Shown: positions 27,796 to 64,000, counted from the first letter of the stretch. The stretch is 64,000 nucleotides of DNA from an uncultured Planctomycetia bacterium (GCA_964390645.1 CAYMLL010000001.1:35045-99044); one strand, 5' to 3'. Notes: generated by a model from the letters alone, not told the origin. Made by a program: numbers and translations.

Positions 27796-30003
27796 CTACT
27801 CGAGGACTCCCCGCAAGAAGGGCACCCGCCTCTCGACGTACGAGCGGATGGCGCGGCAGGCATCGAGAATCTGCGCACGCCGTGCGCCCCGCCCCGCTTC
27901 CAGCTGCGCCTCCAGGAGCTCGAGATCCTCGAGCAGCAGGCTCTCCACGGCGTCGATCTTCCCCAGAACGGTCTCCTCGCTGAAGCCCCCGCCTGCGTCG
28001 ATCTCGCCGCGGAGCGCATCGCGGTAGAGCGCGTCGAGATCCGCTCGTCGGTGATAGGGCTCGGAGAAGATCCGGCGGTCGGCGGCCCGGCTGACGCAGG
28101 TGCCGCGACCATCGAGCGGAAAGGTGATCGGAAAGGTGACGCAGCCGAAGACCTGGTCGAGGTCCCAGGGAATCACGCGCCAGCGCCCACCGGGGGTCAG
28201 GTCGTGATAGAAATAGTAGTTCTGGTGGAAGCCGTCCCAGTTGTCCAGCAGCTCGCTGATGACCGAGTAGCTGCGAACGGAGTCGAGGTCGACCGTCGCC
28301 TCGAGGTCGTCGGACGCCAGAGCCCGCAGCAGCTGCCGGTAGCTCTCGTTGCCGGTCTCCCGGTGGGTCTTCTTGTCCGGCACGAAGCCGTTGTAGTGGT
28401 CCAGCTTGTAGAGGTCCCCGTCGGGATCGACGCCGTTCAGAGCGAAGAACCGCTCGTTGATGTGCTCGATGAGGACCCGCTGGGACTGACGGGACGCGTC
28501 GCCGTTCTCGACGACACGGAACCACCGCGCCCACGGCGCCAGACCTCCCAGATCCCGCCAGAGCTCGAAGCCGAGCTGCTCCATGTGCGGCGCCCGAGTG
28601 CCCGACCCGCCGCCGCCCCGCTCCGGAACGATCTTCACCGAACGATCGCCGCGATACTCCGCGCCCTTGAGGAACTTGAGCGTCAACCCGCCGCGCGATG
28701 AGCGCAGGTCGACGCCGTCGAGCACCTGGGGAGCCTCTGCCCCCGGCTCCCGGATGACCGCGCCTGCGAAGAGACGTCGGTTCTCCGTCAGCCCCGACGC
28801 CCGACGCGCGAAGAGCCAGAGGATCGGCAACCGGGACACGGTCTCGCCGTCCTCGACGAAGTAGCTGAGCACCGGCGGGCTCTCCGCCGTGTGGGGCAGG
28901 AGAACCGCGGAGCCGTCGGCCAGCTCCACACGGAAGTTGTAGCGCACCAGCGTGCTCGACGGACCCGGCGGGATGGTTGCCGAGAACCACGCCCAGTCGA
29001 GGCCGTTGTCGCCGAGCTCCATGCCCAGCGTCTGCGGATCGGTCACGGCCCCCGATACGCGCTGCCAGCGAACGGTCGCGCTCTCGATCGCCGCAGCCGG
29101 AACATCGAGCCCCAGCTCGACGGTGACGGCGTCCGGGGAGCGGGGATGCTCCGGAGTGGCGCGCGACGCCGCGAGCAGCGGGTGGGTCGGCGTCCCGGCC
29201 GACGCGTTCGGCGCGCCCGGAGTGCCCCCCCACGGACCGACCACCGGGGCGCTCGAGGCCCGCCAGCTGTGCGGATCCTCGGCGGGCGACTCGACGTCGA
29301 CCCGCTCGAGCGACGGCCCGTATCCGTCGGCGCCGTTCGGCCAGGGAAAGCTGTCCGCGTAGCGGAGGGACTCGAGCTCGCAGTCTCCGTCGAGAAGGCG
29401 GATGCGCTCGCCACCATTGGCGAGGAAGCCGGTGTACGGACCCGCCTTCAGATCGAGGCGGCGCCACCCGGCGAGGCCGGGCTCCTTGACCACGAGGAAG
29501 TAGCCTCCGGCCGGGACCACCGTCTCCTCGACGAAGGAGAACCTCACGCCGCCCGAGATGCGATGACCGCGCAGGTCGAGGTCGACTCCGGTGCGATTGT
29601 GGAGCTCGATGAACTCGAGCCTCTCGACGGCGCCGGCCGGGTTGTAGTGGATCTCGCTGAGAACGATGGCCGGCGCGGACCGAGGACGATCGGCGCAGCC
29701 CAGAGCGTCGCAGCTGGGGTCCGGCCCACGGGCAAACGCGCCCGGAAAGGGCAGCTCCGGAGCATCGGTGAAGAGGAAGCTCAGTGTCGTCACGACGTCG
29801 CTGAGGTCGAGCCGGCCGTCGTCGTTGGAGTCGGCGGCATCCTCGCAGCGCAGACGGACATCGGCGCCGAAGGACGCCAGGAGATGATAGATCGCGTCGG
29901 TGACGAGGACCCGCCCGTCGCGGTCCGCATCCCCCCGCAGGAAGTCCTGCGCGCCGAGAAAGAGGGGAGAGAAGCACAGAAGGAAGATGCCGACGCGCTG
30001 CAT
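27796..30003 (-). CDS. Secreted dockerin-like / lamin-tail-domain (LTD) / CotH kinase-like protein
   Basis: It has a signal peptide. Next come an N-terminal dockerin pair (GDADRDGRVLVTDAIYHLLASFG...DSNDDGRLDLSDVVTTLSFLF) and an LTD (IVLSEIHYNPAG...EFIELHNRTGVDLDLRGHRISGG). The C-terminal CotH domain reads LKFLKGAEYRGDRSVKIVPE...NGVDPDGDLYKLDHYNG...WDGFHQNYYFYHD...VIPWDLDQVFG. Confidence 0.8.
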   Translation of the reverse strand: MQRVGIFLLCFSPLFLGAQDFLRGDADRDGRVLVTDAIYHLLASFGADVRLRCEDAADSNDDGRLDLSDVVTTLSFLFTDAPELPFPGAFARGPDPSCDALGCADRPRSAPAIVLSEIHYNPAGAVERLEFIELHNRTGVDLDLRGHRISGGVRFSFVEETVVPAGGYFLVVKEPGLAGWRRLDLKAGPYTGFLANGGERIRLLDGDCELESLRYADSFPWPNGADGYGPSLERVDVESPAEDPHSWRASSAPVVGPWGGTPGAPNASAGTPTHPLLAASRATPEHPRSPDAVTVELGLDVPAAAIESATVRWQRVSGAVTDPQTLGMELGDNGLDWAWFSATIPPGPSSTLVRYNFRVELADGSAVLLPHTAESPPVLSYFVEDGETVSRLPILWLFARRASGLTENRRLFAGAVIREPGAEAPQVLDGVDLRSSRGGLTLKFLKGAEYRGDRSVKIVPERGGGGSGTRAPHMEQLGFELWRDLGGLAPWARWFRVVENGDASRQSQRVLIEHINERFFALNGVDPDGDLYKLDHYNGFVPDKKTHRETGNESYRQLLRALASDDLEATVDLDSVRSYSVISELLDNWDGFHQNYYFYHDLTPGGRWRVIPWDLDQVFGCVTFPITFPLDGRGTCVSRAADRRIFSEPYHRRADLDALYRDALRGEIDAGGGFSEETVLGKIDAVESLLLEDLELLEAQLEAGRGARRAQILDACRAIRSYVERRVPFLRGVLE

Positions 30004-30150
30004 GATTCTCGAGCTCCCGACCGCGGACCGCGACCCTCGGCGACTCCGCTGGACCCGATCATAACGCCCCCGCTCGAAGCTTGTCGACCGCGGCAGAGTG
30101 CGATTCCGTGCCCGCGGAAGGACCCGGAGGATCCCGGCGTCGATCCGGGC

Positions 30151-31560
30151 TCAGAAGAGTGCCGGTATCGGACGGGCCCCGGTGGTGATCTCGAGCACGT
30201 CGGCCGGAACCTCCGGCGCCAGCCGCAGTTCCCCGACGTCGAACACGCTGTGAAAGATCGTGGCGAGCAGGTTCTCGGGGCCGTACTCCTCGCTGGCAGG
30301 CTTGGCAGCCTGGCTGTCCGATCGGCCGATCACCTGACCCATCTCGAGGCCACCCCCGGCGAAGACGAGCGACGTGAGGCCACCGTAGTGGTCGCGTCCC
30401 CCGCGTCCGTTGATACGCGGCGAGCGTCCCATCTCGCCGGTGATGACGAGGAGGATCCTGTCAGCGAGCCCACGCTCCTCGACATCTTCGAGGAAGGCGG
30501 AGACCGCGTGGTCGACCTGACGACCGAGCGGCTCCATGCCGGTGAGACGCGGCAGGCTGTTGTTGTTGCCGTGCATGTCCCAGCCGGCGTCGGCGACGGT
30601 GACAAAGCCACACCCCGCCTCGCAGAGACGCCGCGCGAGCAGCATCTGACGACCGAGAAGGTTCGACGACCGGAACATGTCGTTGTAGCGATTGAGCACC
30701 TTCATGTCGAAGATGCCGCTCGTGTCATAGCGCTCGATCGTGCGGGGGTCCTCCCTGGAGAGATCGAAGGCGTCGACGGCGCCGCGCGTCAGGACATCGA
30801 AAGCCTGCTGCTGATAGCGGTCGACCCCCTCGAGCGCCCCCTCGTCGTCGACCCGTCGACGCAGACGGTCGAGCCCGTCGAGCAGCGTGCGGCGGTCGTG
30901 GAGCCGATCGCGCGGGATGCGCAGCTCCATGTTCTCCTTCACCTCACCGCCGCCGACGGGGTTGAAAGCCTCGTAGGTCCGGCCGAGTGAGCCCGCGGTC
31001 GTCAAGCCCGACAGAGCGTTCGCCTCGAAGTTGCGTCGCAGCTGGAGGCCGGACTTCACCGCCTCGGGAAGCACGAGCGCATTGCGAGGCAGGCCGGTGA
31101 CCGGATGCGTCAGCCCCGTGACCCTGGCGTAGAGAGCGCTGGCCGTCGCCTTCAGGGAGTTGCGCGCGCTGAGCACCTGGTGGTAGGTGTGGCCGGAGTT
31201 CCCCGACGCGTACGAGCGGACAACGGCGAGCCGGTCCGCGAGCTTCGCCATGCGCGGAAAGGTGCCGCCAAAGGTGACCCCGGGAAGCGTCGTCTTCACC
31301 TCACCGGTGACGCTGCGGATCTCCGACGGCGCCGTCATCTTCGGGTCGAAGCACTCGATGTGCGACGGCCCGCCCTGCAGGAAGAGCAGGACCACCGAGC
31401 GGTCCTTCACCGGAAGACCGGCGGCCGCAAGACGATCGCGTGCCGCGAGGAAGCTCGCGAGGCTCCAGCCCCCCATCGCAAGGGACCCGATTCGCAGAAA
31501 CTCGCGTCGAGAGGCACCGGCGCAGGTGCGTCCGAATCCGCCGTCCGTCAGAGTGAGCAT
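30151..31560 (-). CDS. DUF1501 protein (second copy, no adjacent PSD1 partner)
   Basis: ORF 30151..31785, with the start at MLTLTDGG (31560). It has a Tat-like RREFLRIGSLAMGG signal and the DUF1501 motifs VVLLFLQGGPSHIECFDPK, DAGWDMHGNNN and ITGEMGRSP. Confidence 0.8.
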   Translation of the reverse strand: MLTLTDGGFGRTCAGASRREFLRIGSLAMGGWSLASFLAARDRLAAAGLPVKDRSVVLLFLQGGPSHIECFDPKMTAPSEIRSVTGEVKTTLPGVTFGGTFPRMAKLADRLAVVRSYASGNSGHTYHQVLSARNSLKATASALYARVTGLTHPVTGLPRNALVLPEAVKSGLQLRRNFEANALSGLTTAGSLGRTYEAFNPVGGGEVKENMELRIPRDRLHDRRTLLDGLDRLRRRVDDEGALEGVDRYQQQAFDVLTRGAVDAFDLSREDPRTIERYDTSGIFDMKVLNRYNDMFRSSNLLGRQMLLARRLCEAGCGFVTVADAGWDMHGNNNSLPRLTGMEPLGRQVDHAVSAFLEDVEERGLADRILLVITGEMGRSPRINGRGGRDHYGGLTSLVFAGGGLEMGQVIGRSDSQAAKPASEEYGPENLLATIFHSVFDVGELRLAPEVPADVLEITTGARPIPALF

Positions 31561-31951
31561 CGCGTCTCCTGGGTCCACGCCGCGCTCGAGAGCACCGGGC
31601 CACGCCCGTCGCGAAGATCTCTCGACCGTTCTCGCGAAGGGGTCTCTCCCGGACCCTCGCCACGATATGCGGCCGGAGCGCCGATGTCGATGCCAGAATC
31701 GCCGCCGGCACGGCCGATCTCGACCCTGCTCGGACGGCGACCCGAGCGACGTCACGACCTCGCAGGCATGGTGAATCGTCCCCACGACAGGCAGGACAGG
31801 GCCCGCGAGCGTTGACCTCCGAGCCTGCGGCCACGGCGCCCGCGAACACCCGCCGAACCCGGAAAAAGACCGCGGACGCTTGTCGACAGCCGGGGTTCAA
31901 GTCCCGTCTCATCGATACGGAGAACAACGAACACGTCCCGGGGGCCGTCCC

Positions 31952-32941
31952 ATGAACCGCAACCGTCTTTCTGCCGTCGGCCTGCTCACCGCGCTCCCCC
32001 TTGTCGCGGTCACGCTGGTGGCGCAGGACAACCCCCCGTTCGTCCGCGCGGACGCGAACCTCGACGGTGGCAGCGATCTCAGCGACGGCGTCTATCTGCT
32101 CGGCTACCTCTTCCTCGAGGGTCCGGCGCCGGGGTGCGAGGACGCCGCCGATTTCAACGACTCCGGCCGGCTCGACATCAGCGACGCGAGCTTCCTCTTC
32201 AACTCGCTCTTTGTCGGCGGTCCGCCGGTTCCTCCCCCCTCGGGCGACTGCGGCGAGGATCCGACGGACGACGACCTGACCTGTCGGGAGACCGACTGCG
32301 AGGTCGTCGAGCCCGGGCCACCCGGCGGCTACCGGCACTTCCGCGACAACGTCGAGATCGAGGAGTCCGGCAACCGCATGGTCATCCGCTCCGACGGAGT
32401 GCCGGACCACCCGAGCCCCTACTTCCGCCGCAACGACCCCCGGCACGTGCCGCCACACCCCGCCATGCGCCTGAACCCGAATCGAATCGTGCCGCAGGAT
32501 CTCGTCTTTCGCATCCCCGCAGTCCCGACCGTCGCGGCGAGACCGACCGATACGCGTCTCGGCCCGATCGGGGTCGCCGTCAACGGCGTCGCCCTCTTCA
32601 ACCAGTACGCCGGCCCCGGTCAGCCACTCGACCGTGAGATCATCTCCTTCGACATTTACAACGGTCACCCGCAGCAGACCGGGCTGTACCACTACCACGT
32701 CGAGCCGACCTACCTGACAGTGGACGACTCCGGCGCGCTGATCGGCTACCTCCTCGACGGCTTTCCACTGTACGGGCCGACCGAGGAGGACGGCAGCAAC
32801 CCGACCGGTCTCGACCCGTGCAACGGCCACACGCACGCGACCGAGGACTACCCGGACGGCCTCTACCACTACCATGTCGTCGCGGTGCCGCCGTACCTCG
32901 TCGGCTGCTACAAGGGCCGGCCCGGCACCTTCACGAACTGA
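31952..32941 (+). CDS. Secreted protein: N-terminal dockerin-like pair + C-terminal YHYH domain
   Basis: The start is MNRNRLSAVGLLTALPLVAVTLVAQ. The dockerin pair reads ADANLDGGSDLSDGVYLLGYLFLEGPAPGC and DFNDSGRLDISDASFLFNSLFVGGPP. The C-terminal domain carries GLYHYHVEP and GLYHYHVVAVPP, the YHYH motif. Confidence 0.7.
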   Translation: MNRNRLSAVGLLTALPLVAVTLVAQDNPPFVRADANLDGGSDLSDGVYLLGYLFLEGPAPGCEDAADFNDSGRLDISDASFLFNSLFVGGPPVPPPSGDCGEDPTDDDLTCRETDCEVVEPGPPGGYRHFRDNVEIEESGNRMVIRSDGVPDHPSPYFRRNDPRHVPPHPAMRLNPNRIVPQDLVFRIPAVPTVAARPTDTRLGPIGVAVNGVALFNQYAGPGQPLDREIISFDIYNGHPQQTGLYHYHVEPTYLTVDDSGALIGYLLDGFPLYGPTEEDGSNPTGLDPCNGHTHATEDYPDGLYHYHVVAVPPYLVGCYKGRPGTFTN

Positions 32942-32944
32942 CGA

Positions 32945-33660
32945 TGCGGACGACGGCCCTGCGACCGACCACCGCGGCTCTCTTCGTGATCATGGCCTCG
33001 GGTTGTGACCGGGCGGACACCACCGGCGATGCGCCCGGCCGTGTTGTCGCGACTTCTTGCCAGGGTCTCGACGACGGGCTCGAGCACGGACCTCGCACCG
33101 CCGAGGAGCTGCGGAAGCTGATGCCAGGGGCGACGACCATCGCGCACGACGACGCGCGATCGATCCGACACCGCGGCACGATCCTCGTCGATGGCGAACG
33201 GTTCACCGGCCTGCGCGAGAAGCGCTCTGCCGGGGGCGGGCTGCTGGGTCTGACGAGCTACCGCCACGGCCTCGCCGAGGGCTGGAGCCTCGCCTGGTTC
33301 GACAGCGGCGAGATCCGCGAGCGCCGGTTCTGGAAGGCCGGCCGCAAGCATGGCACGCACGTCGGCTGGTGGGAGAACGGCGAGCTGCGCCTCGAGCTGA
33401 ACTTCGCCGCCGGCGAGTTCGAGGGCGTCTGCCGGGAGTGGCACCGTAGCGGCCGGCTCGCGTCGATGCGGACCTACCGACGCGGAGAGGAGGACGGACC
33501 GCAGATGTCGTGGTCGGCGGACGGCAGTCTCGTGGCGAACTACGTCGTGCGCGAAGGACGACGCTTCGGGACGATCGGCTCGCGCCCGTGCTTCACGGTC
33601 GTGGATGGCGCGCAGGCACCCGGGAGGACTGCGACCGGAGCGGAGGCGAGAGCAAGGTGA
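32945..33660 (+). CDS. MORN-repeat (YwqK-like) lipoprotein
   Basis: It has a lipobox (FVIMASGCDR). Repeated G-x-W-x-x-W/F-x-x-G motifs are present (GLAEGWSLAWFDSGE, GKHGTHVGWWENGE, GEFEGVCREWHRSGR). It starts 4 bp after the YHYH gene stop. Confidence 0.6.
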
Positions 33661-33686
33661 GGGATGCGACGCTCCGACGACTCGCG

Positions 33687-34391
33687 ATGCTCGCCGTCGT
33701 ATCGATGGCCGCGGTCGCCACGCCGTCGTGTTCACGAAGCTCGGGCGAGGCGAAGGAGGCGTCCACGGCGTCGACCCACCCGCCGGGCCCCGACCGCAAA
33801 CCGGACGGCCTGCCGTTCTACGTCTCTTCCGACCTCACGCCGGTGTGGTTCGACGGGGAGCCTCGCGAACGCGAGATTCACCGCATCGGCGAGTTCCGCT
33901 TCCTGGATCAGACCGGCGCCGCGGTCACTCATGAGACGCTCAGCGGAAAGATCTGGGTCGCCGATTTCTTCTTCACGACCTGCGGCGGCATCTGCCCGAA
34001 GCTGACCTCGCACCTCCGCGAGGTGCAGGACGCCTTTCTCGACGACGACGGCATGGCGCTGATCTCGCACACGGTCACCCCGAAGATCGACACGGTCGAG
34101 CAGCTCGCCACCTACGGCGAGGCGCGTGGTGTGCGTGCCGGGAAGTGGCGACTGGTCACCGGTGATCGCGAGGCGATCTACCGCCTCGCACGCGGGAGCT
34201 ACTTCGCGGAAGGCGACCTTGCCATTCCACCGACATCGGAGCGCTTCCTGCACACCGAGAAGGTCTTTCTCCTCGACAGGGAGCGCCGGATCCGTGGCGT
34301 CTACGACGGGACCCGCAACATCGACATCCGTCTGTTGATGGAGGACATCCGTGAGCTGAAGAAGGAGTACGCCGACGATGAAGCCCTCTGA
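33687..34391 (+). CDS. SCO1/SenC-family thioredoxin-fold copper chaperone lipoprotein
   Basis: It has the FFFTTCGGICP CxxxC motif and a distal His (LISHTV). The overall SCO fold length fits, and it has a signal/lipobox. Its stop overlaps the sulfatase start. Confidence 0.7.
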   Translation: MLAVVSMAAVATPSCSRSSGEAKEASTASTHPPGPDRKPDGLPFYVSSDLTPVWFDGEPREREIHRIGEFRFLDQTGAAVTHETLSGKIWVADFFFTTCGGICPKLTSHLREVQDAFLDDDGMALISHTVTPKIDTVEQLATYGEARGVRAGKWRLVTGDREAIYRLARGSYFAEGDLAIPPTSERFLHTEKVFLLDRERRIRGVYDGTRNIDIRLLMEDIRELKKEYADDEAL

Positions 34392-36027: not shown

Positions 36028-36253
36028 TCGGACAGCCTGCGGCGCCCGAAATGCTTTCAAGGGCATCTGCTGCTTGCCGACCGCCGCCGGGATGGAAAAG
36101 GCTCCTGGCCCCTTTTTCCCCGTGATAGACTGGATGCTGCGGTTGCCCCACGGTCTCCGGCAAGCACGACCACGACGGCGAGGGCCCCTTTCTTCGCCTG
36201 CCGTCGTGCGCTTCTTCGCCTGGCAAGGCAACGAAGACCCGACGAAGATCTGA

Positions 36254-51351: not shown

Positions 51352-52024
51352 CTACTTGGCGATAAGGAGGCGCAGCCGATTGGCCATGCGCTCGGCTCCA
51401 TTTGCCAGATCCCCCAGCTTCGCAGTGACACGCATCCAGAGCAGGACCTCGACCGCGCCGATCTCATTCTCGAGTCCGACGACGATCTTCATCGCGGCGA
51501 GCTCGGAGGAGTCCGCGACCGTCTCGTCCTGGTTCAGGTTCTCGATCATCGCGAGCACCTTCTCGGCCTCCTCGCCGCCGAAGGACGACTCGACGAGCTC
51601 GTCGAACTCCTGAACGATGTCGGCCGCCTCGTGACAAACCCGACACGCGTCGGAGACGAGCTGGTTCAGCGGCTCCTTCAGATCCTCATGACACGACAGC
51701 CTCCGCAAGCTCAGCAGCGACCCGAGGTCCTGGCAGGTGTCGGCGATGGAGTCGATAACCTCCACGATCTCGAGAAGATCGCGACGGTCGATCGGAAGGA
51801 AGATGCTCTTCGGCAGATGTCCCCGGATGTCGTTCTTGACCCCGTCAGCTTCTGATTCGAGATCGTAGATCTCGCGGTTGAGCCGATCGAACTCCGGCAT
51901 GTTGCCGTCAGCAACCGCACCGATCAGGGCCGGAATACGCTCGACGCAAGCACGCGCCTTCTCCATGTGCTCCTGGACCGGTTTGAAAGGACTACGACCG
52001 AACAACGCCGCGAGGGCTTTCATC
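51352..52024 (-). CDS. DUF47 / TIGR00153-family PhoU-like protein (PiT-associated regulator)
   Basis: ORF 51352..52107, with the start at MKALAALFG (52024). The DUF47 layout (HMEKARACVERIP...EIYDLESEADGVKNDIRGHL...) is immediately upstream of pit, as in ykaA-pit pairs. Confidence 0.75.
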
Positions 52025-52406
52025 GTCAGAAATTCTCCTGTCTCAAACCAGGCCCCATCTCGTAGTCCGAACGCTGAGTATGTGGTTCCGACGCTCCACG
52101 AAACCAAAAGAGCGGCCGTGAACGGCAGATACGCTACGCCGGAATATTCAAGAGGTCATGAAGACTTTATTAAGCTTTCGTGAATTTCAATCTCGTCGGG
52201 AACCCGGCTACGACACGTCCCCCTTCCCACCACGTCGACGAGTGCGGACTGTCGAGATTCTGCCACCGTGCCACGAGCGCCGGTCCTCGCGCAATCCGGT
52301 GACGCGACCCGGTGACGCGTCCGGTTCCACGGACCTCACCAGGAAGCCCTCCAGGTACGAGCGTGGCAGCGCCCCCGGCGACGAAATCGCAAACTCTCGA
52401 GCTCGC

Positions 52407-55400: not shown

Positions 55401-57860
55401 GACGACGAGGTAGCCACCTGCCGGAATGGTCTGGCCGTCCTCGAACTCGTAGCGAATACCACGAGTCATCCTCCACCCGCTGAGATCAACCGTCGAGGTG
55501 CCCCGATTGTGGAGCTCCACCCAGGCCTCGGGGGACTCCGTCGGATCGCCGCCCGCGACGTCGACGATCTCACGGGCACTGACCTCGAGTCCGAAGACGA
55601 CGTCGCTCGAGCCGGCTGTTCTCTGGTGCACCTCGACCGCGATCACGTTGCGCCCGCTTCGCAAGCTCGCCGCCGACACCGCGAAGGGACCGGCGAAGGT
55701 CGCGTCACCGATAGCCGCAGCGGCCAGTGTCGCGGGCGTCACCGGGCCGTCAGGCATCCCCTGCCGCAGTACTTCGACACCATTGAGATAGAAGACCGCG
55801 CCGTCATCGATGACGCTCCGGAAGAAGATCTCGGTGGCTGCGGGGTCACCGTCAAAGTCGAACTCCCCGCGAAAGTAGTAGGTGATCGCGCCGAGTGGCA
55901 ACTCCGTACCCCTGGGAGCGGGCAAGCCGCCGGACTCGTGGTAGAGCAGCGCGTCGCCGACCTCCCAGCCCGCATCATCGAACGTCGACTGTCGCCAGCC
56001 ACTCCCCTGACCGTCGCCACTCGCGTCGAAGCGCCACTCGCTGGCGATCGGCACGATCACGTCGCCGATCACGGTCCCGGCGCTCGGCGCCGGCTCGTTG
56101 CGCGGGTTGTAAAAGATCTCGTTGATGACGATCTCGTCGTGAAAAGAGAACGTGTTGGCGCTACCGAAGGTCGGTCCGTCCGGCACGGCAAGCTCGTTGC
56201 CGCCGTCCGGCGAGCGACCCCGTCGTCCGTCCTTCAAGCGTAGCGCATCGACGACCGCCCCCTTGCCACGGGTGTAGAGAAAGAGACGGGAGTCCACGAC
56301 GAGCGCAAAACCGAGTTCCGTCGCCGTCAGCACGTGAAACGCGCCCGTCTCGAGCGTCACCGCCCCGAAGACGTGCTCGCCGACCGTCGTGCCGTGCGCC
56401 TCCAGCACCCAGCCCTCGAGGGAGACCCGCGGACCGGTGTTGTAGAGCTCGATGCGACCCTCTCCCGCCGTGGGAATCTCGGTCTCGTTGATCACGACGC
56501 CGATGTCGCTCGTATCGACCTGTCCGCCGCCACCCGAGAAATAATCTCCTCCGCCCTGCGTCAGGGAGCGATGGTCGGCAATTTCGGCGGCGTTGAGAGC
56601 TCGCTCCCAGATCGCTACCTCGTCGAGCACCCCGGTGAACGGTTCTCGCCGGCCGCTCATGTTGCCGATGTAGGCCGTCGCGATGCCTCCCGAAGTGATC
56701 GTATCACCCGGTGTCAGCACCGTCGTGAAGGCCTCGGCGCCATCGACCCAGATCGTCTTCTCGCCGGTCGATGCTCGATAGGTCGCAGCGACGTGATGCG
56801 TGCTCCCGTCCTTCAGCCCGGCAAGCGTCGGTCGACCCGCCACGCCGTCGAGGGGCATGTCGAGCTCACTGTAGGTGCCACCGATGTTCAGACCGAACGA
56901 CAGCGTGGGCTGTACAGCAGGCGAGATCGCGACGTCACGGGTCCCCGTGTTTCCATCGTGCTGGAACGAGAAGAAGATCCTGCGGCTGCCGTCCTCCTTG
57001 CGGAAAATCTGGTCGTGGTCGTCGACCGCGCCGCTCCACTCGGGACGGATCAGCGCCTCGATCGTGATGCCGCCCGACATCGAGAAGCTGTCCCCCTCGC
57101 CGTTGCCGACGTTGACGAGAGCGTTCGAACTGTTGTCCAGATCGATCGCGCCGTCGCCGACGAGCCCGTCGACCCTGCGGACACCCGAGCCCAGGTTGCC
57201 GTGGTTGCCGCCGACAGCATCGACGGCCTGGCCGCTCGACTCGTCGAAACTCCAGTAGGACACGAGTCCCTGCGCATTCGTCGGCGGCGGCTCGTCCCCG
57301 TCTGCAAAGTTGACCCGTCCGGGCGTGCCGCCGATCTCCGCGCTCGACGTCCAGCTGGCAGTGCGCGAGCTGCGCGTGTCCGGATCGATCTTGGCCAGCG
57401 ACACCCCGGAACCGTCAGCGGACACCGGCCATTCGCCGCCGACACCGTAGCTGACGCGGTCCATCCAGCGGCCGTTGTGGTCGCGAAGCTCGAGACGCTC
57501 ACCGGCGTTGCTCAACCGTCCGACGAAGGGGCCGAAGGCGCCCGGGTAGCCGGTCTCGGCCTCGAGCGCGGCGGGGTCGAGCGCGACGACGATGTAGTCG
57601 CCACCTTCGACGATCGTCCCCGCGGGAAACTGGTAGAAGACGCCGTCAGACAGGTACCAGCTCGAGATGTCAACGTCCACCGCCATCTGGTTGTGGAGCT
57701 CGATCCACTCCAGCTGCACCTCGCTGGTGGCAGGGTGGTACTGGATCTCGTTGAAGACGACGATGCTGTCCGCTCGCCCGGCGCCTGTCCAGGTGAACAA
57801 GAACCCGAAGAGCGCCGCACCCATCAACGCGGTGTGAGATTGCCTCTGGCCTGCACTCAT
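52407..57860 (-). CDS. Giant secreted multi-LTD / LamG-like / CotH kinase-like / IPT protein with C-terminal dockerin-like pair (1,818 aa)
   Basis: ORF 52407..58319, with the start at MSAGQRQSHTALMGAALFGFLFTWTGAGRA (57860). LTD1 is VVFNEIQYHP...EWIELHNQMAVDVDISSWYLSDG. A LamG-like stretch is LVSYWSFDESSGQAVDAVGGNHGNL...ITIEALIRPEW. Further LTDs include AWVELHNRGTSTVDLSGWRMT. The CotH core is VFYDAGVRLRGSERGRPDTNRVSFNIRF...YALLLMARYND...LFKLELIYHP...WNFLIRNN...VLVMMWDADFSF. There are IPT-like repeats (VTIRGSELHAGIEVFFGG). The dockerin pair is GDFNLDGVVDISDPVAILRHLFSG and DADNDETVDLTDAVRILAHLFQQG. Confidence 0.8.
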   Translation of the reverse strand: MSAGQRQSHTALMGAALFGFLFTWTGAGRADSIVVFNEIQYHPATSEVQLEWIELHNQMAVDVDISSWYLSDGVFYQFPAGTIVEGGDYIVVALDPAALEAETGYPGAFGPFVGRLSNAGERLELRDHNGRWMDRVSYGVGGEWPVSADGSGVSLAKIDPDTRSSRTASWTSSAEIGGTPGRVNFADGDEPPPTNAQGLVSYWSFDESSGQAVDAVGGNHGNLGSGVRRVDGLVGDGAIDLDNSSNALVNVGNGEGDSFSMSGGITIEALIRPEWSGAVDDHDQIFRKEDGSRRIFFSFQHDGNTGTRDVAISPAVQPTLSFGLNIGGTYSELDMPLDGVAGRPTLAGLKDGSTHHVAATYRASTGEKTIWVDGAEAFTTVLTPGDTITSGGIATAYIGNMSGRREPFTGVLDEVAIWERALNAAEIADHRSLTQGGGDYFSGGGGQVDTSDIGVVINETEIPTAGEGRIELYNTGPRVSLEGWVLEAHGTTVGEHVFGAVTLETGAFHVLTATELGFALVVDSRLFLYTRGKGAVVDALRLKDGRRGRSPDGGNELAVPDGPTFGSANTFSFHDEIVINEIFYNPRNEPAPSAGTVIGDVIVPIASEWRFDASGDGQGSGWRQSTFDDAGWEVGDALLYHESGGLPAPRGTELPLGAITYYFRGEFDFDGDPAATEIFFRSVIDDGAVFYLNGVEVLRQGMPDGPVTPATLAAAAIGDATFAGPFAVSAASLRSGRNVIAVEVHQRTAGSSDVVFGLEVSAREIVDVAGGDPTESPEAWVELHNRGTSTVDLSGWRMTRGIRYEFEDGQTIPAGGYLVVAGDRVFLEGLHPDIPIVGDFEGNLSGRSDRLVLEDRNGNVADVVRYHDRQPWPGAADGGGASIELRDPDADNSRPEVWAASDESDKTQWTTYVYTQPARANIGPTRWRDFCLGLLDGGEVLVDDISVIENPGGAERQLIQNGSFASGSSGWRFLGTHRHSEVITDPDDPGNRVLRLVATGATEHMHNHVERTLANNIGVTNGRTYEISFRARWVVGSNQVHTRLYFNRCPRTTLVTVSERAGTPGAENSRRQANIGPTYDGMMHAPVVPASGEPVVVSVGVDDPDGVDSVQLRYSVEGGAWRSASMSLAAGRYRGTIPGQSSSRTVQFYVEAEDGLGASSTYPDGGRDSRALYRTNDGQARLGSVHNVRIIMTPADISRLYASIELMSNDPVGTTVVYNEEEVFYDAGVRLRGSERGRPDTNRVSFNIRFPADHLFRGVHRSIAMDRSGGWSGLVPIQSQDEILVKHTANYAGGIPAMYDDLVRVIAPRRQHTSYALLLMARYNDVFLESAFENGRDGTLFKLELIYHPTTADGNGYKIPLPDGVIGADIRDWGDDKEVYRWNFLIRNNRSRDDYRQFIGMSKAFSAPRSQLDAATEATMDVDEWMRVFAVYSLTGINDSYTFGNNHNNMHYVRPSDGKVLVMMWDADFSFTRGTGASLYGDQNLRRIIELPGNLRRFYGHLDDIIDRVYNTDYMRHWTEHYGTKTGRNFGGILNYIGQRGRFVRGRLPAPVAFRITTNGGADLALDTPTVDLEGDAGIDVQSILVDGLEERSQITWSSLSRWRITVPLVSGENDVRLLGVATSGEVTATDSITVTTTFGLPPPVLTTVEPVEARPGDSVTIRGSELHAGIEVFFGGVLSPLVTHDPGADPGVLVAEVPLVDAGPATITARNFGSGDSNRLEFTALGLPPRFIRGDFNLDGVVDISDPVAILRHLFSGLESNCRDAGDADNDETVDLTDAVRILAHLFQQGPPPAAPYPDPGEDPDGDGPLECVDGL

Positions 57861-58132: not shown

Positions 58133-61100
58133 ATGCTGGGACATCGATGCGTACTCGGACTGCTCGTGTCGGCGCTCGTGGCAGTTGCGGCGACAGGCAC
58201 CCTGCAAGCGCAGATCTACTCGGACGACTTCGAGCGCGCCGACGGTCCCGTCGACGGCTGGACGAACGCCGGTGGCAACTGGGAGATTGCCGGCGGCGAG
58301 CTCGTCGGCGGGCCTCCATCCGGAGCCGAGCAGCAGATCTTCGCCGGCGACCCCGCTCTGGTCTTGCCCGACAGCTACCGCCTCTCGTTCGACATCCGCT
58401 GGATCGCGCCCGAGGGCGGCGGCGTCGGCCGCCACGGCGGCGTCATGTTCAACTTCCAGGGCGTCGGACCTCGCGGCTCGCAATCCGGCTACCTCGTCTG
58501 GTGGATCGACCGAGCAGCCGACAAGGGACTGAACCTGACACGACGCGACGGTGGCGGATTCAACCACCTCGTCGTCGGCCCCGGCGCCGCGAACGCTCCC
58601 GCGGACCCGCCCGAGCGCTGGACGATCGAGGTCGTCGGCCCGACGATCCGCGTCTACGGCGACGGCACTCTCTACATCGAGCACGTCGACAGCACGTACC
58701 GCGGCGGTCGCTTCGCGATGTTCACCTGGAACGGGGAAGGCCAGCACGTCGCGATCGACAACGTCCTGGTCGAGGGAATCGTGCTCGCCGACAATTTCAG
58801 CCGCTCGCCCGTCCCGAACTGGACGCCCGTCGGCGGCAACTGGAGCATCGACGGGGAATCCGAGACCTTGCGGGTCGGCCCGACGGGCGGCGAGATCCAG
58901 ATCTACGCCGGCAGCCCGCCGGTATCGCTGCCGGAGGAGTTCTCGCTGTCGGTCGACATGGCGTACCTGGCGCCGGGTACCCACCCGGTCGTCGGACGGC
59001 ACGCGTCAGTGAACTTCAACTACCAGGAGGCGACAGCCAGGAACGGCTCCGACGGCTACCAGGTCTTCTGGATCGACCGCGGCAGTGACTTCGGCCTCAA
59101 CCTCGTCCGCTGGGACGGCGGCGCTCTGGTGCCGCTGGATGCGAACGGCACCGGCGACCTCTTCGCCGACCCTCCGGCCAACCTGCGCATCGAGGTGGAC
59201 GGCGACACGATCCGTGTGTACGGCGACGACGTTCTGGCGATCGAGGCCGTCGACACCACGTACCGCGGCGGGCTCTTCGCCATCTGGTCGTGGACCGGCG
59301 GCCAGGAGCTCCAGGTCGACAATGTCATCGCGACCGCCGGCGACGAGACACTCTTCGAGGACACCTTCACGCCCGGTCCGATCTCGCTCGGCGACTGGAC
59401 CGTCATCGAGGGCCTCTGGGAGATCGTCGACGTCGACGGTGACAACGCTCTGCGCGCCGGACCCGCGGGCGCTACCGAGCAGAGCATCTTCGCGAACGCG
59501 ACGCTGCCAGCCGACTTCGTCGCCAGCGTCGACATCGACTGGATCGCCCCGCAGGGCGGTGGCGTCGGTCGACACGGCGGGGTCTACGTCTGCTGGCAAG
59601 AGCCGAGCGGTCGCACCGCCGGGAACGGCAACGGCTACCACATCTGGTGGATCGACCGCGCGGCCGACCGGGGCTGGAACCTGTTCAAGCAGGTGAACGG
59701 CACGTTCAACACGCTCGTATCGGGCACCGCGCCCGCGGGAGCAAGCCCCGACGGTGCCCTCTCGATCGAGGTCGCCGGTGACAGCATCCGTGTCCACCAC
59801 AACGGCGAGCTCGTCATCGACCACGACGACAGCCAGTTTCGCCGTGGCCATATCGGCCTCTGGACCTGGGCCGGCAAGGGGCAGAACGTCGACTTCGACG
59901 ACGTCGTCGTCTTCGGCGATCCGGTCCAGTGCATCCCCTGCTTCGCGGTGACGACGGACGCGCCGCGCTTCCCCGGCGAGCCGGTGAGCTTCGACGCCGG
60001 CTGTGGCTTCGGCAACATCACCTCGTACAGCTGGGACTTTGGCGATGGACAGTCCGACTCGGGCGAGCAGACGGAGCATACCTACGACGAGAGCGGTACC
60101 TACACGGTAACGCTGGCGGTCGAAGGCCCGGACGGCTGCCAGGAGTCGGTCTCGCAGGACATCGAGATCGCCTGCGTCGAGAGCTACGAGTGCGACGGCA
60201 GCGTCGCGAGCGACGACTTCGAGGATGGTGATCTCGACGGCTGGACGGTGGCGGGCGGCACCTGGAACGTCGACGACGGCGTCGCCGTCGCCGGGCCGGC
60301 AGCCGCTGGAGGCGCCGGTGCCGAGCAGCATCTCTTTCTAGACCAGGCGGTGCCCAACGACGAGGTGACGATCCAGTTCGACTGGGAGTTCCTCTCCTCC
60401 GGCAACGTGGCCGGCGTCGGACGCCACGCGGGAATCTACTTCTGCTGGACCGGCACCGGCGTGCGCTGGGACGGTGGCACGAGAGGCTACCAGCTGTGGT
60501 GGATCGACCGTGCGCAGGACCGGGGCCTCGTCCTGGCGGACTGGAATCCGGGGCTCTCGCGTATCCTCCATCCGGGCACCTTCGACCTCTTCCCCGAGCC
60601 CCCGCAGACCATCCGCATCCAGATCGACGGACCGCGCCTCCGCGTCTTCGGAGCCGACGTCTGCGCGATCGACATCGAGGACACGACCCACCGGGGTAGC
60701 CAGGTCGCTCTCTGGACCTGGGAGCAGGGCCAGCACGTGCGCTTCGACAACTTCTGCATCGACGGACCACGCCTGGCGCCGTGCTTCGAGGTCGCCAAGA
60801 GCGGCCCTACGGTAGTCGGCGGCTCGATCACCTTCGATGGCGACTGTACGTCCGTGGCCGACGACGTCGAGGACATCCCCCTCCTGAGCTGGGACTTCGG
60901 AGACGGCAACGGAGACGACGGCAACATCGTCCGGCACACGTACGCGGAGCCGGGCACGTACACCGTGACCATGACAGCGGAGATCCCCGGCGAGGTACGG
61001 AGCTTCTCGCGGGACATCGCCGTGTCGCCTCTGGCAACGGAGTTCGAGGACGGCTTCGACGCGTTCGGCGTGGAGCTCGGACCATGGACGGTCGCGGCGG

Positions 61101-62794
61101 GTGCTTGGTCCCGGGTCGACGGACGGCTGACGACCGGCCCGACCGGCGCAGAGCACTGGATCTGGGCCGGCGCGCCCCCGGAGGTGGCGCCGGGGAACTC
61201 GGTCTTCGAGTTCGACTACGAGTTCCTGGCTCCCGGGACCGTCCCGTCGGTCGGCCGCCACGGCGGATTCGCGTTCTGCTGCGACGATCCATCGTCGCGC
61301 GGCGTCTTCCGCGGCTACTACTTCGACTGGATCGATCGTGACTCCGACCGCGGCATACGACTCACTCGCTCCGACGGCGCTCCCGACTCGATTCTCGTCA
61401 ACGGACAGGGTGTCGAGAACGCACCCGCCGACCCGCCGACCCACTACCGCGTCGAGATCAACGGCCCACGCATCCGCATCTGGGGTGACGACGAGCTCTA
61501 CATCGACATCGTAGACAACACGTACCGTGGGGGCTTCTTCGGCTTCTGGACCTGGGCCGGCGGTCAGGAGGTCGCCGTCGACAACTTCGAGCAGGTCGAG
61601 AGCTCGCTCCTGAGCCCGTGCTTCGAGAGCCGCCCGGGCGCCCTCCTCGCCGCCGGCCAGGTCGGTACCTTCGACGCGTCCTGCGCCGGGATCTTCTGCG
61701 ACGTCGACAACATCGAGTTCTACACGTGGGACTTCGGCGACGGCAGTGATTCACGGAGCGGTGTCGAGGTGACGCACGCCTACGAGACGCCGGGAACCTT
61801 CCCGGTGACGCTCACGATCGAGGATTCCGACGGCAACGATCGCTCGGTATCGAAGGACGTCACCGTCTTCGAAGAGAAGGCCCCCTTCGCCGACTGCTTC
61901 GAGCGAGCAGCCGGAGCGCTCGATGGCTGGACGGTCCCGCTCGGCGCCTGGTCGATCCTCGGCAACGAGACGGCTGCCACGGCGACGACCACCGGCAACC
62001 CCGACGCCGAGAGCTGGGCCTGGTGCGGCGATCCCGCCGGCGCCACCGGGGAGCCGAACCTCGCGATACAGTTCGACGTCACGAGCGTCCTGTTCACCGG
62101 CAGCCCGCTGGACAGCGTACGACGACATTTCGGGGTCATGTTCTACTCGAACGTGGTGACGACGAACCGAACCGCGCCGGACTCGAGCGGCTACGGCCTC
62201 TGGTGGATCGACCGCACGAACGACCGCGGCGTCTCGCTGACGCGCCTCGACGGCACACAGCGCACCATGCTGGCATCCGGGGCGGGCAGCGATCTCGACG
62301 GCCCTCCCGGCGTCTGGCGCGTCGAGATCGACGGAACGGTGATCCGCGTCTTCGGCGACGACGTGCTCCTGATCGAGGTCGAGGACGAGACCTACCGCAC
62401 GGGGCACCTCGGGTTCTGGGCATGGAAGAACATGTCCCTCGGCATCGACAACGTCCGGGTCGGCCGTCTCGGCGAGCTGCCACAATGCGCTCCGGTCGGC
62501 GGAGCCCAGAGGGCATGCGACTTCAACCAGGACGGCCGCTTCGACCTCTCGGACGCGGTCAGCCTCCTCGCTTACCTCTTCACCGGAGGAGCCAGTCCTC
62601 CCTGCGGAGATGGCACGATCGCGGACCCCGCGAACCAAGCGCTCCTCGACGCCAACGGCGACGGGAACCTCGACATCTCCGACGCCGCGTACAAGCTCAA
62701 CTACCTCTTCACCGGGGGACCGGCTCCGATTCCGGGCGGCCAGTCGAGCTGCCTGCTGATCCCGGGCTGTCCGGACACCGGCTGCGTCGAATGA
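58133..62794 (+). CDS. Giant secreted protein with 6 DUF1080-like (concanavalin/LamG jelly-roll) repeats, 3 PKD domains and C-terminal dockerin-like pair (1,554 aa)
   Basis: ORF 57950..62794, with the start at MLGHRCVLGLLVSALVAVAATGTLQAQ (58133) after an AGGGAGACAAGGA RBS. Six ~200-aa repeats share DGWT..GGxW.I.GG.L.GP...EQ.IF.GDP...D...SFDI.W.AP.GGGVGRHGG...F.....GY..WWIDR..D.GLNL.R.DGG.F..L.....ADPP....IE..G..IRV.GD.....IE..D.TYRGG.F..WTW.G.....DN. PKD-like modules (C...F.A.C......Y.WDFGDG...G....H.Y...GTY.VTLT.E) follow repeats 3, 4 and 5. The C-terminus reads CDFNQDGRFDLSDAVSLLAYLFTGG...DANGDGNLDISDAAYKLNYLFTGG. Confidence 0.75.
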   Translation: MLGHRCVLGLLVSALVAVAATGTLQAQIYSDDFERADGPVDGWTNAGGNWEIAGGELVGGPPSGAEQQIFAGDPALVLPDSYRLSFDIRWIAPEGGGVGRHGGVMFNFQGVGPRGSQSGYLVWWIDRAADKGLNLTRRDGGGFNHLVVGPGAANAPADPPERWTIEVVGPTIRVYGDGTLYIEHVDSTYRGGRFAMFTWNGEGQHVAIDNVLVEGIVLADNFSRSPVPNWTPVGGNWSIDGESETLRVGPTGGEIQIYAGSPPVSLPEEFSLSVDMAYLAPGTHPVVGRHASVNFNYQEATARNGSDGYQVFWIDRGSDFGLNLVRWDGGALVPLDANGTGDLFADPPANLRIEVDGDTIRVYGDDVLAIEAVDTTYRGGLFAIWSWTGGQELQVDNVIATAGDETLFEDTFTPGPISLGDWTVIEGLWEIVDVDGDNALRAGPAGATEQSIFANATLPADFVASVDIDWIAPQGGGVGRHGGVYVCWQEPSGRTAGNGNGYHIWWIDRAADRGWNLFKQVNGTFNTLVSGTAPAGASPDGALSIEVAGDSIRVHHNGELVIDHDDSQFRRGHIGLWTWAGKGQNVDFDDVVVFGDPVQCIPCFAVTTDAPRFPGEPVSFDAGCGFGNITSYSWDFGDGQSDSGEQTEHTYDESGTYTVTLAVEGPDGCQESVSQDIEIACVESYECDGSVASDDFEDGDLDGWTVAGGTWNVDDGVAVAGPAAAGGAGAEQHLFLDQAVPNDEVTIQFDWEFLSSGNVAGVGRHAGIYFCWTGTGVRWDGGTRGYQLWWIDRAQDRGLVLADWNPGLSRILHPGTFDLFPEPPQTIRIQIDGPRLRVFGADVCAIDIEDTTHRGSQVALWTWEQGQHVRFDNFCIDGPRLAPCFEVAKSGPTVVGGSITFDGDCTSVADDVEDIPLLSWDFGDGNGDDGNIVRHTYAEPGTYTVTMTAEIPGEVRSFSRDIAVSPLATEFEDGFDAFGVELGPWTVAAGAWSRVDGRLTTGPTGAEHWIWAGAPPEVAPGNSVFEFDYEFLAPGTVPSVGRHGGFAFCCDDPSSRGVFRGYYFDWIDRDSDRGIRLTRSDGAPDSILVNGQGVENAPADPPTHYRVEINGPRIRIWGDDELYIDIVDNTYRGGFFGFWTWAGGQEVAVDNFEQVESSLLSPCFESRPGALLAAGQVGTFDASCAGIFCDVDNIEFYTWDFGDGSDSRSGVEVTHAYETPGTFPVTLTIEDSDGNDRSVSKDVTVFEEKAPFADCFERAAGALDGWTVPLGAWSILGNETAATATTTGNPDAESWAWCGDPAGATGEPNLAIQFDVTSVLFTGSPLDSVRRHFGVMFYSNVVTTNRTAPDSSGYGLWWIDRTNDRGVSLTRLDGTQRTMLASGAGSDLDGPPGVWRVEIDGTVIRVFGDDVLLIEVEDETYRTGHLGFWAWKNMSLGIDNVRVGRLGELPQCAPVGGAQRACDFNQDGRFDLSDAVSLLAYLFTGGASPPCGDGTIADPANQALLDANGDGNLDISDAAYKLNYLFTGGPAPIPGGQSSCLLIPGCPDTGCVE

Positions 62795-62927
62795 AGCGGC
62801 AGCTGTAGCCATGTCCACGGTCGGTCGCGAGTCCGCAAGATTCGTGGCCGACCGTGGATCTCTGTCGCTCGGTCGAAGTCACCCGGTCCGCGTTGACCGC
62901 GGGCACTGAAACCAGGAGAACGGTGGG

Positions 62928-64000
62928 ATGTCGGTTCGGTCCATGGCCCTTGCTCTGACGTCTCTCGCGGTCGCCTCGCTACCGGCGCAGGACTTCGACG
63001 ACGACTTCGAGCGCGGCAACGGTCCGCTCGACGGGTGGACCGTCCATGACGGCGACTGGAACATCGTCGACGGAGTCCTCGTCGCCGGTCCAGCCGGCGC
63101 CACGGAGCAGCACGCGTACGTCGGCGACCCCGCCCTTCGATTCCCGGCGGGCGACTACGTCTTCTCGGTCGACCTGCAGTTTCTCATCGAAGACCAGCAG
63201 CCGGTCGGGCGCCACGCAGGAATCGCGTTCTGCATGGACCAGCCCGCAGCGCGGTCGTCCTCCAGCGGCTACCTCGCATGGTGGATCGACCGCACCGCCG
63301 ACCGGGGGATCAACCTCACCCGTCGAGATGGCGGCGGCTTCAATCACCTCGTTCTGGGTGGCGGAGATCCGCTCTCCTCGCCACCGACCAACCTGACGAT
63401 CGAGATCACCGGCGACACGATCCGCGTCCATGCCGACGACGTCCTCGTCATCGAGCACGTCGACAACACCTACCGCGGCGGTCACTTCGGCCTCTGGTCC
63501 TGGAACGGCGCGAGCCAGCACGTCGCATTCGACAACGTCACGCTGGAAGCTGAAGTCCCGGCGCTCACGGCCTGCTTCACCTTCGACCCAGCCACTCCCC
63601 TGCCCGGAAACGATGTGATCTTCGACGCGTCCTGTAGCATCGCGAGCCTCGGCGAGATCGTGGGCCATGAGTGGTCCTTCGGGGACGGCGACTCTGCGGA
63701 AGGTGAGGTGGTCGAGCACGTCTACGACTTTGCCGACAACTACGTCGTCACGTTGACGGTGGAGGATGACCTGGGAAACGTCGCCACAGTCGACAGAAAC
63801 ATCGGAGTCCCGGACACGCTGCTGCCCCTCGAGGACGACTTCAACCGCGCCGAGGGACTCGCCGACGGCTGGACGATCCACGAAGGCGACTGGCGCATCA
63901 ACGCCGACGGCCAGCTGCAGGTGACGACGCAAGGAGCCGAGGCCACGATCTGGGCGGGCGACCCTGCTGGCGTGCTCGCGGGCGACTTCACCATCGAATT
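62928..64000 (+). CDS. Paralogous secreted DUF1080-like/PKD repeat protein, 5' part (runs off window end)
   Basis: The frame is open from the ATG at 62928 (MSVRSMALALTSLAVASLPAQ signal) to the window end. It has the same repeat (GYLAWWIDRTADRGINLTRRDGGGFNHLV ... IRVHADDVLVIEHVDNTYRGGHFGLWSWNG), a PKD module (HEWSFGDGDSAEG...YVVTLTVEDDLGN), and the start of a second repeat. Confidence 0.7.
   Translation, partial: MSVRSMALALTSLAVASLPAQDFDDDFERGNGPLDGWTVHDGDWNIVDGVLVAGPAGATEQHAYVGDPALRFPAGDYVFSVDLQFLIEDQQPVGRHAGIAFCMDQPAARSSSSGYLAWWIDRTADRGINLTRRDGGGFNHLVLGGGDPLSSPPTNLTIEITGDTIRVHADDVLVIEHVDNTYRGGHFGLWSWNGASQHVAFDNVTLEAEVPALTACFTFDPATPLPGNDVIFDASCSIASLGEIVGHEWSFGDGDSAEGEVVEHVYDFADNYVVTLTVEDDLGNVATVDRNIGVPDTLLPLEDDFNRAEGLADGWTIHEGDWRINADGQLQVTTQGAEATIWAGDPAGVLAGDFTIE

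Follow-up and report, generated by a model that had tools for sequence, protein, structure and literature searches.

A dockerin-type module with predicted disulfide staples on eight secreted proteins of an uncultured Planctomycetia bacterium, and its relatives fused to cohesin-like domains

Planctomycetota rank among the major degraders of polymers in the sea and in fresh water. A cohesin/dockerin system, the planctosome, has been hypothesized for freshwater Nemodlikiaceae (Andrei et al., 2019, ISME J; PMC6461901); in the accessible passages of that paper the proposal draws on sequence analysis only (methods that use homology, motifs or structures, and domain co-occurrence), and in those of the later citing literature it is still only a hypothesis. 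Dockerins have also been described on sulfatases of Lacipirellula (PMC6995999), as expansions in kelp-associated Planctomycetes (PMC5264255) and on a xylanase of Rhodopirellula baltica (PMC2838879), and a two-cohesin scaffoldin is known from Limihaloglobus sulfuriphilus (PMC11557425), a bacterium of the Planctomycetes-Verrucomicrobia-Chlamydiae (PVC) group. Here we analyze a 64,000-nucleotide stretch of DNA from an uncultured Planctomycetia bacterium (GCA_964390645.1 CAYMLL010000001.1:35045-99044; the whole of this stretch is hereafter called the window), which encodes eight secreted proteins that share one dockerin-type module of about 90 amino acids (aa). A preliminary description of the window had taken the module for part of an undescribed assembly system, a novelty that does not stand beside the planctomycete dockerins and the planctosome hypothesis already in print (PMC6461901, PMC6995999, PMC5264255). 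The kind of system is already described, and the window most likely adds cargo proteins of a planctomycete cohesin-dockerin assembly.

Among characterized proteins, the best sequence and structure matches to the window module are the type I dockerins of clostridia and ruminococci (PF00404; Cel48S, 1DAQ/2MTE, and Xyn10B in 1OHZ), yet identity to them is only ~20-30%. Both have a duplicated F-hand with Asp at loop position 12 and a three-helix fold of ~60-70 aa with near two-fold internal symmetry, and both are appended to unrelated secreted proteins, CotH-family proteins included. Unlike type I dockerins, the window module has helices that end in L-F-x-G-G and an added Pro-rich Cys tail with one or two putative disulfides, and the planctomycete module is often N-terminal, internal or multicopy, has no cellulase cargo, and belongs to a diderm host. 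In Ruminococcus flavefaciens, adaptor scaffoldins have the form Coh(n)-Doc (Coh, cohesin; Doc, dockerin) and there is a sca gene cluster; two of the PDB matches obtained here, 5m2o and 4uyp, are structures that we take to be connected with these scaffoldins or this cluster. The same Coh-Doc architecture is present in four related loci (L043, L022, L027 and L041) but not in the window, and many planctomycete proteins differ from the R. flavefaciens scaffoldins in having dockerins at both ends (D-C-D, D-C-D-C-D; D, dockerin; C, cohesin-like domain), an arrangement that, to our knowledge, has not been described for cellulosomes. A cellulosome proper was considered and rejected: Pfam detects no glycoside hydrolase among the eight carriers, the window has no scaffoldin, and the Pfam-annotated cargo of Doc-only carriers in relatives is mostly non-cellulolytic. 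The window family in this respect resembles the non-cellulosomal dockerin-like modules, known since 2009, that Peer et al. (2009, FEMS Microbiol Lett) are said, by papers citing them, to have found on non-cellulolytic proteins of diverse bacteria and archaea. Such modules are reported to lack, in many cases, a recognizable cohesin in the same genome.

The planctosome, as far as the accessible passages of its description go, is likewise a Planctomycetes cohesin/dockerin set not tied to cellulose. It includes an LTD-containing protein and a dockerin-HYR-cohesin adaptor, and we detected a Coh-HYR-Doc subtilase in one related locus (L055). In those passages the model deals with the peptidase cargo of one family, whereas the window has sulfatase, CotH, PPDK_N-like, YHYH and DUF1080 cargo and no cohesin. 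The same passages make no mention of a Cys-stapled signature, of alternating Doc-Coh chains or of the size of the family; in the searchable literature, too, we found neither the combined L-F-x-G-G, Cys-staple and tail signature nor the abundance of the family nor alternating Doc-Coh polyproteins.

Identity of the module

Using a regular expression for the Ca loops on the window's translations, we found one module in each of exactly eight open reading frames (ORFs; Table 1). A hidden Markov model (HMM) built from these eight modules returned the same eight ORFs only in a six-frame scan of the window. An independent HMM, built from metagenomic homologues only and without any window sequence, matched the eight alone (E = 1.9e-36 to 4e-14) and had no match at E<=10 among 3,985 shuffled ORFs. 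The preliminary description had counted nine carriers; eight are confirmed where it placed them. The ninth (62928+) runs past the end of the window, and neither module HMM has a match in the 357 aa that are visible. All nine N-termini, judged by eye, resemble Sec signal peptides. The modules had been divided evenly between the two termini, but three are N-terminal, beginning a few residues past the predicted signal-peptidase site, and five are C-terminal, stopping 0-6 residues ahead of the stop codon. Cellulosomal dockerins had moreover been taken to be always C-terminal, a premise that does not hold, since an N-terminal Doc1 on a scaffoldin has been described (PMC11557425). In none of the carriers does the module overlap a Pfam partner domain, catalytic domains included (Pfam and module HMM); it is separable and terminal, as first proposed, and its partners are as heterogeneous as first stated, with Pfam matches to Sulfatase, YHYH, PPDK_N, CotH/LTD and 3keto-disac_hyd (DUF1080)/PKD.

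The motif reads F-x-R-G-D-x-N-x-D-G-x-h-D-h-[ST]-D ... L-F-x-G-G ... C in its first half and D-x-[ND]-D-x-G-x-h-D-h-[ST]-D ... L-F-x-G-G ... P-x-P ... C-G-x-D-P ... C in its second, and all eight modules contain two tandem F-hand units, each a 12-residue Ca loop followed by a helix. Ca-ligand positions 1, 3, 5 and 12 of the loop are conserved, position 12 being Asp and not Glu, and across 44 modules the ligands D7, N9, D11, D18, D40, D43 and D51 are invariant or near-invariant; by its sequence, the module is predicted to bind Ca. When the eight-module profile was compared with the PDB, the best sequence matches were type I dockerins (CelS, 1daq/2mte, E = 1.3e-6), and the alignments to solved type I dockerins cover both repeats. 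Pfam Dockerin_1 matched six of the eight modules when these were searched in isolation (best E = 6.5e-6). About a quarter of 120 homologues, among the matches listed, carry a precomputed PF00404 assignment, and at least one is named 'dockerin type I domain-containing protein' at NCBI; NCBIfam contains no corresponding model. The sulfatase module was modeled with AlphaFold2 from a 44-sequence alignment; the model reached a predicted local distance difference test (pLDDT) score of 91 and has helices at residues 16-27, 36-39 and 49-61, as in the three-helix dockerin fold. The top 29 PDB structures that Foldseek matched to it are without exception dockerins, with target-normalized template modeling (TM) scores of 0.40-0.81 and root-mean-square deviations mostly of 1.7-3.0 Å. 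Given the Dockerin_1 matches of isolated modules, the PDB profile matches, the AlphaFold2 and Foldseek results and the Ca ligands, the earlier assignment as a dockerin-type, Ca-binding module by sequence is therefore correct, and we are highly confident that the module belongs to a dockerin subfamily.

Weak matches to the EF-hand_1/5/6/7 and FG-GAP models would suggest a generic EF-hand or acidic repeat, or else a resemblance that arose by chance and reflects no shared function. The EF-hand Pfam models reached E = 0.0077 at best on isolated modules, and a canonical, calmodulin-like EF-hand pair (PF13499) was rejected, since no helix precedes loop 1 in the model and position 12 is Asp. Over more than 500 non-identical copies, all ~90 aa of the module are conserved, and with them positions outside the loops, namely F3, R5, L-F-x-G-G, the cysteines and the G-x-D-P tail; the predicted structure resembles dockerins and not canonical EF-hand pairs; and the independent profile, with E values down to 1.9e-36, was silent on the shuffled controls. 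We regard the generic-repeat explanation as refuted on these grounds and assign it next to no probability.

A planctomycete subfamily and its cargo

Searched exhaustively with HMMER, 1.84 billion cluster representatives (clusters at 50% identity) yielded 48,386 family clusters at E<=1e-3, of which 28,084 also reach E<=1e-10. Scored with the window-derived profile, family members reach 96-136 bits, as against 31.5 for the best canonical dockerin. A consensus-module scan of one genome per GTDB species confirmed 263 stretches; all counts for related loci given here refer to the best 80 of these 263, each locus spanning at most ~20 kb. Nearly all 80 loci come from metagenome-assembled genomes (MAGs) of uncultured Planctomycetota, often several loci per genome. 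Seven loci with perfect family modules (L028, L030, L036, L053, L065, L066 and L070) carry MAG labels of Bacillota, Proteobacteria, Parcubacteria or Woesearchaeota, which probably reflect mis-binning or mislabeling of planctomycete contigs, not true spread.

The anatomy of the subfamily comprises two near-identical F-hand units, each a loop D-x-N-x-D-G-x-h-D-h-[ST]-D and then a helix that ends in L-F-x-G-G, with a short connecting helix between them, then a Pro-rich stretch and the tail 'C-G-x-D-P-T-x-D-x-L-x-C'. The two repeats are identical at 18 of 24 family consensus positions, a near two-fold internal symmetry; in type I dockerins, internal symmetry underlies dual binding. Among 553 non-identical modules, Cys35 (family consensus numbering) is present in 99% and Cys84 in 95%, and Cys73, present in 46%, is nearly always accompanied by a Cys ~6 residues past Cys84 (245/8/20/280, Fisher p = 4.5e-120). 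From this covariation we infer one obligatory and one optional disulfide, which is unusual for the dockerin fold: Cys35 and Cys84 would form a near-invariant disulfide that staples the Pro/Asp-rich tail to the core, and Cys73 and the distal Cys would form a second one in about half of the family. Such disulfides would fit an oxidizing extracytoplasmic location. We know of no equivalent disulfide-stapled tail in characterized dockerins. These features are best explained if the module represents a subfamily, specific to Planctomycetota, within the type I dockerin fold.

Clustering of carriers is typical of the related loci, 48 of 80 holding at least two and nine holding four or five. In 125 Doc-only ORFs the module is C-terminal in 105, near the N-terminus in ~14 and internal in 6, and in the wider family, too, internal modules are found, and a single protein may have as many as seven. 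The partner domains of 72 Doc-only carriers fall into 54 Pfam families, among them FG-GAP, PKD, beta-helix, CotH, GH18, sulfatase, MauG-type peroxidase, endonuclease I and metallophosphoesterase. This diversity is the signature of a general-purpose tag, and it agrees with the preliminary description, in which heterogeneous secreted partners were the mark of a docking tag.

A tag of this kind could also be a secretion or sorting signal read by a transport or anchoring machine, like the C-terminal domain of type IX secretion system substrates, PEP-CTERM or LPXTG. Its strictly terminal position in all eight window proteins would suit such a signal, as would its confinement to signal-peptide proteins and a lineage-restricted distribution like that of other sorting tags. 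However, a module that is N-terminal (three of eight in the window), C-terminal or internal, and present in up to seven copies, is unlike position-dependent tags, and it is predicted to be a folded, Ca-binding dockerin homologue. Pfam searches of the window ORFs revealed no sorting-machine genes near the carriers, and we judge a sorting function very unlikely.

Cohesin-like domains in relatives and the proposed role

In many of the 150 best-scoring family representatives, modules occupy both ends or the N-terminal, internal and C-terminal positions. In three representatives (P0196, P0143 and P0229), Pfam Cohesin matched above its cut-off between the modules. Of 161 inter-module domains, 124 fell into one BLAST cluster, whose profile matches solved cohesins (3l8q, E = 1.8e-9; 1ohz_A, 1anu and 2ccl_A, ~1e-6). 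With a lineage-specific cohesin profile built from the inter-module domains and validated against solved cohesins, cohesin-like fusions of the D-C-D, D-C-C-D and D-C-D-C-D types were detected in 90 of the 150 best representatives (P0121-P0270), a set biased to multi-module proteins, so that this 60% is not a family-wide frequency; the longest alternating chain is D-C-D-C-D-C-D-C-D. In the related loci, proteins of the form signal peptide-Coh(1-3)-Doc account for 35 of 160 carrier ORFs and occur in 24 of 80 Planctomycetota loci. Four such genes lie in a row in L043 (4919-11153), and consecutive ones are also found in L022, L027 and L041. Pfam Cohesin (PF00963) had no match at E<1e-3 in eight scaffoldin-like ORFs from seven loci (L043, L022, L042, L058, L066, L015 and L046). 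Because Pfam Cohesin misses domains that the lineage profile finds, the number of 'dockerins without cohesins' counted in Planctomycetota is probably too high, and the miss is likely to contribute to planctomycete dockerins seeming partnerless in routine annotation.

As the preliminary description had noted, no cohesin is recognizable in the window itself: Pfam detected none in 39 ORFs, and nothing significant in the 64 kb matched either of two cohesin profiles specific to the lineage, run at maximum sensitivity. The step from there to an undescribed assembly system is not supported, given that the same subtype is fused to cohesin-like domains in 90 of 150 representatives and in 24 of 80 loci. 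Since relatives fuse the same module subtype to cohesin-like domains, cognate-type receptors exist in the lineage and would simply be encoded elsewhere; the window's own genome, too, probably encodes cohesins outside the window.

We propose that the eight window proteins would be exported by Sec, with their modules folding on binding two Ca2+ and being locked by one or two disulfides. Each module would then act as a position-independent docking tag for cohesin-like modules of scaffoldin-type proteins encoded elsewhere, which, to judge by the fusions in relatives, may have the form signal peptide-Coh1-3-Doc or that of alternating Doc-Coh-Doc chains. Docking would gather the sulfatase, the CotH-type kinases with LTD, the PPDK_N-like enzyme, the YHYH protein and the lectin-like DUF1080/PKD giants, none of them cellulolytic, into an assembly that is presumably cell-associated. 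Higher-order chains or networks, formed by scaffoldins with dockerins at one or both ends, are conceivable but speculative. Cohesin binding by the module is suggested indirectly by the fusion of its subtype to cohesin-like domains in relatives, and we consider it moderately probable that the module serves as a cohesin-binding cargo tag in the window organism.

Several points weigh against this cargo-tag role. Neither the Pfam search nor the lineage profiles revealed a cohesin beside the eight carriers, the bias of the 150 representatives limits what their fusions say about the family at large, and the cohesin-like calls in the 80 loci all come from the lineage profile. Many genomes, according to papers citing Peer et al. 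(2009, FEMS Microbiol Lett), reportedly contain dockerins and no cohesins. On whole proteins, Pfam Dockerin_1 stays below its cut-off of 22.9 bits in three carriers (21.0, 21.4 and 20.1 bits for those starting at 39833, 52407 and 58133, respectively) and has no match to the other five. Finally, Ca2+ binding, docking and localization of the subfamily are predictions from sequence and model.

The absence of a cohesin beside eight carriers is also what would be expected if the module were independent of cohesins, that is, a Ca2+ module that stabilizes its protein, self-associates or binds surface glycans or the envelope, with no dedicated cohesin receptor; many 'orphan' non-cellulosomal dockerins have reportedly been proposed to work without one. 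The family includes proteins made of nothing but tandem modules (P0127, P0133, P0212 and P0121, with three to seven dockerins), and the first three, like the architectures from DD to DDDDDDD in general, suggest a role beyond one tag per cargo; the putative disulfide-stapled tail is a further feature without counterpart in characterized dockerins. On the other hand, fusions of the subtype to cohesin-like domains in so many representatives and loci are hard to explain unless the two modules cooperate, and the near two-fold symmetry of the repeats is typical of cohesin-binding type I dockerins. We therefore hold cohesin independence to be rather unlikely and favor the cargo-tag role.

A bolder form of the docking proposal, which we put forward as tentative and on balance doubtful, is a Planctomycetota-wide, disulfide-stapled cohesin-dockerin system in which scaffoldins with dockerins at both ends polymerize into a Ca2+-dependent envelope lattice that recruits CotH-type kinases, the PPDK_N-like enzyme and sulfatases. 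If this were true, architecture and cargo set would be unlike those of any characterized cellulosome, and most of the system would escape standard annotation, given that the Pfam cohesin model overlooks most such cohesins. Docking specificity, moreover, may not be uniform in the window. The modules of the proteins starting at 39833 and 58133 are divergent: 10 additional residues separate their two repeats, their Cys tail has the atypical form C-x-x-x-x-x-C-x-x-x-C, and they score 48-60 bits against the independent family profile, compared with 85-120 for the other window modules; both proteins are among the three with a whole-protein Dockerin_1 match. These divergent modules may mark a second specificity class.

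Window features, gene surroundings and implications

Table 1. Carrier proteins and modules in the window, with the truncated paralogue and cohesin-dockerin gene stretches in relatives (nucleotide positions)
Feature	Position	Strand	Remarks
Secreted protein, 348 aa	9868..10914	-	Signal peptide, domain without Pfam match, acidic Cys-rich spacer, C-terminal module
Module of the 9868-10914 protein	9874-10173	-	93.7 bits, independent profile
Acidic Cys-rich spacer CDNETDDDDDGLVDCDDDACPPC	10174-10260		aa ~218-245 of the 9868-10914 protein, directly before the module
Secreted LTD and CotH-kinase-family protein, 735 aa	27796..30003	-	Pfam LTD 109-205, CotH 475-726
Module of the 27796-30003 protein	29683-29949	-	N-terminal, ~aa 19-105, directly after signal peptide
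Secreted YHYH-domain protein, 329 aa	31952..32941	+	Pfam YHYH
Module of the YHYH protein	32033-32299	+	N-terminal, directly after signal peptide; 110.5 bits, independent profile
Secreted S1-type sulfatase, 549 aa	34378..36027	+	Pfam Sulfatase 128-440
Module of the sulfatase	34465-34734	+	N-terminal, directly after signal peptide; 119.6 bits; the module modeled
Secreted PPDK_N-like (PEP-utilizing/ATP-grasp-type) protein, 1066 aa	36254..39454	+	Pfam PPDK_N 349-680
Module of the PPDK_N-like protein	39179-39448	+	C-terminal; module HMMs
Secreted giant, 1218 aa	39833..43489	-	Pfam LTD x2, CHB_HEX_C/Fn3_assoc, CotH
Divergent module of the 39833-43489 protein	39836-40114	-	C-terminal; 48.1 bits, independent profile
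Secreted giant, 1817 aa	52407..57860	-	Pfam LTD x2, Laminin_G_3, CBM_4_9, CotH
Module of the 52407-57860 protein	52413-52673	-	C-terminal; two-Cys form; 97.4 bits
Secreted giant, 1553 aa	58133..62794	+	Pfam DUF1080/3keto-disac_hyd repeats alternating with PKD
Divergent module of the 58133-62794 protein	62504-62791	+	C-terminal; 59.5 bits, independent profile
DUF1080/PKD secreted protein, paralogous, 5' part (357 aa)	62928..64000	+	Pfam; cut by window end
Cohesin-dockerin gene stretch in a relative	L022:6424-10264
Cohesin-dockerin gene stretch in a relative	L042:11340-14015

The eight carriers and their modules are listed in Table 1. The spacer CDNETDDDDDGLVDCDDDACPPC resembles the acidic double-disulfide repeat of NCBIfam (acid_disulf_rpt) at 18 bits, far below the cut-off of 41. 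The PPDK_N-like protein has full-length orthologues that keep the module in L032 (2062-7653; 45% identity over 1046 aa) and L010 (7638-10832; 39%), so that two other Planctomycetota have conserved a secreted protein of the PPDK_N-like type that ends in a dockerin. Together with the three secreted CotH-kinase-family proteins, it makes several predicted nucleotide-using enzymes outside the cytoplasm. For the truncated 62928+ protein, no relatives were found in genome or metagenome contig collections.

The window has a G+C content of 63-69% and contains, by Pfam, the planctomycete hallmark pair of a PSCyt1/PSCyt2/PSD1 gene (19671-22589) and a DUF1501 gene (22595-24064), with a second DUF1501 gene at 30151-31785; the hallmark pair makes the PVC/Planctomycetota origin well founded. 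BLAST comparison of the window proteins with the 80 related loci revealed no close relative and no synteny, the best match being a DUF1501 protein of UBA1146 (69.5% identity).

Phosphate-related genes flank the carrier cluster: a PhoD-like phosphatase (2-1183, minus strand), PhoU (48900-49385), a PHO4/PitA-type phosphate transporter (49780-51339) and a DUF47/PhoU_div protein (51352-52107). Two OmpR-type response regulators are encoded at 25793-26527 and 47966-48673, and the first of these, together with a histidine kinase (26524-27585), directly adjoins the CotH/LTD gene at 27796-30003. The carrier cluster may be co-regulated with phosphate status. After the dockerin-tagged YHYH gene come an ORF that weakly matches MORN_2 (32818-33660) and a gene of the SCO1/SenC copper-chaperone family (33510-34391), and the three (31952-34391) may be a copper-related trio. 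Unrelated to the dockerin module, an NfeD-like membrane protein (1331-3061) adjoins a flotillin-like FloA (3595-4677), the usual NfeD-flotillin operon pair.

For the window itself, 'no cohesin, hence new system' gives way to cargo genes for a system whose type is known and whose receptor would lie elsewhere in the genome. The subfamily is a very large planctomycete branch, for the most part unstudied, of docking by cohesins and dockerins. The window shows on a small scale what holds for the wider data: a single dockerin subtype is the tag of dozens of secreted families that are unrelated to one another, and relatives fuse that subtype to cohesin-like modules overlooked by routine annotation. 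If the docking is real, it would offer a concrete route to test the still sequence-based planctosome idea, it would supply new, possibly orthogonal, disulfide-stabilized cohesin-dockerin pairs for protein engineering, and it would be an organizing principle for enzyme assemblies at the planctomycete surface or in the periplasm.

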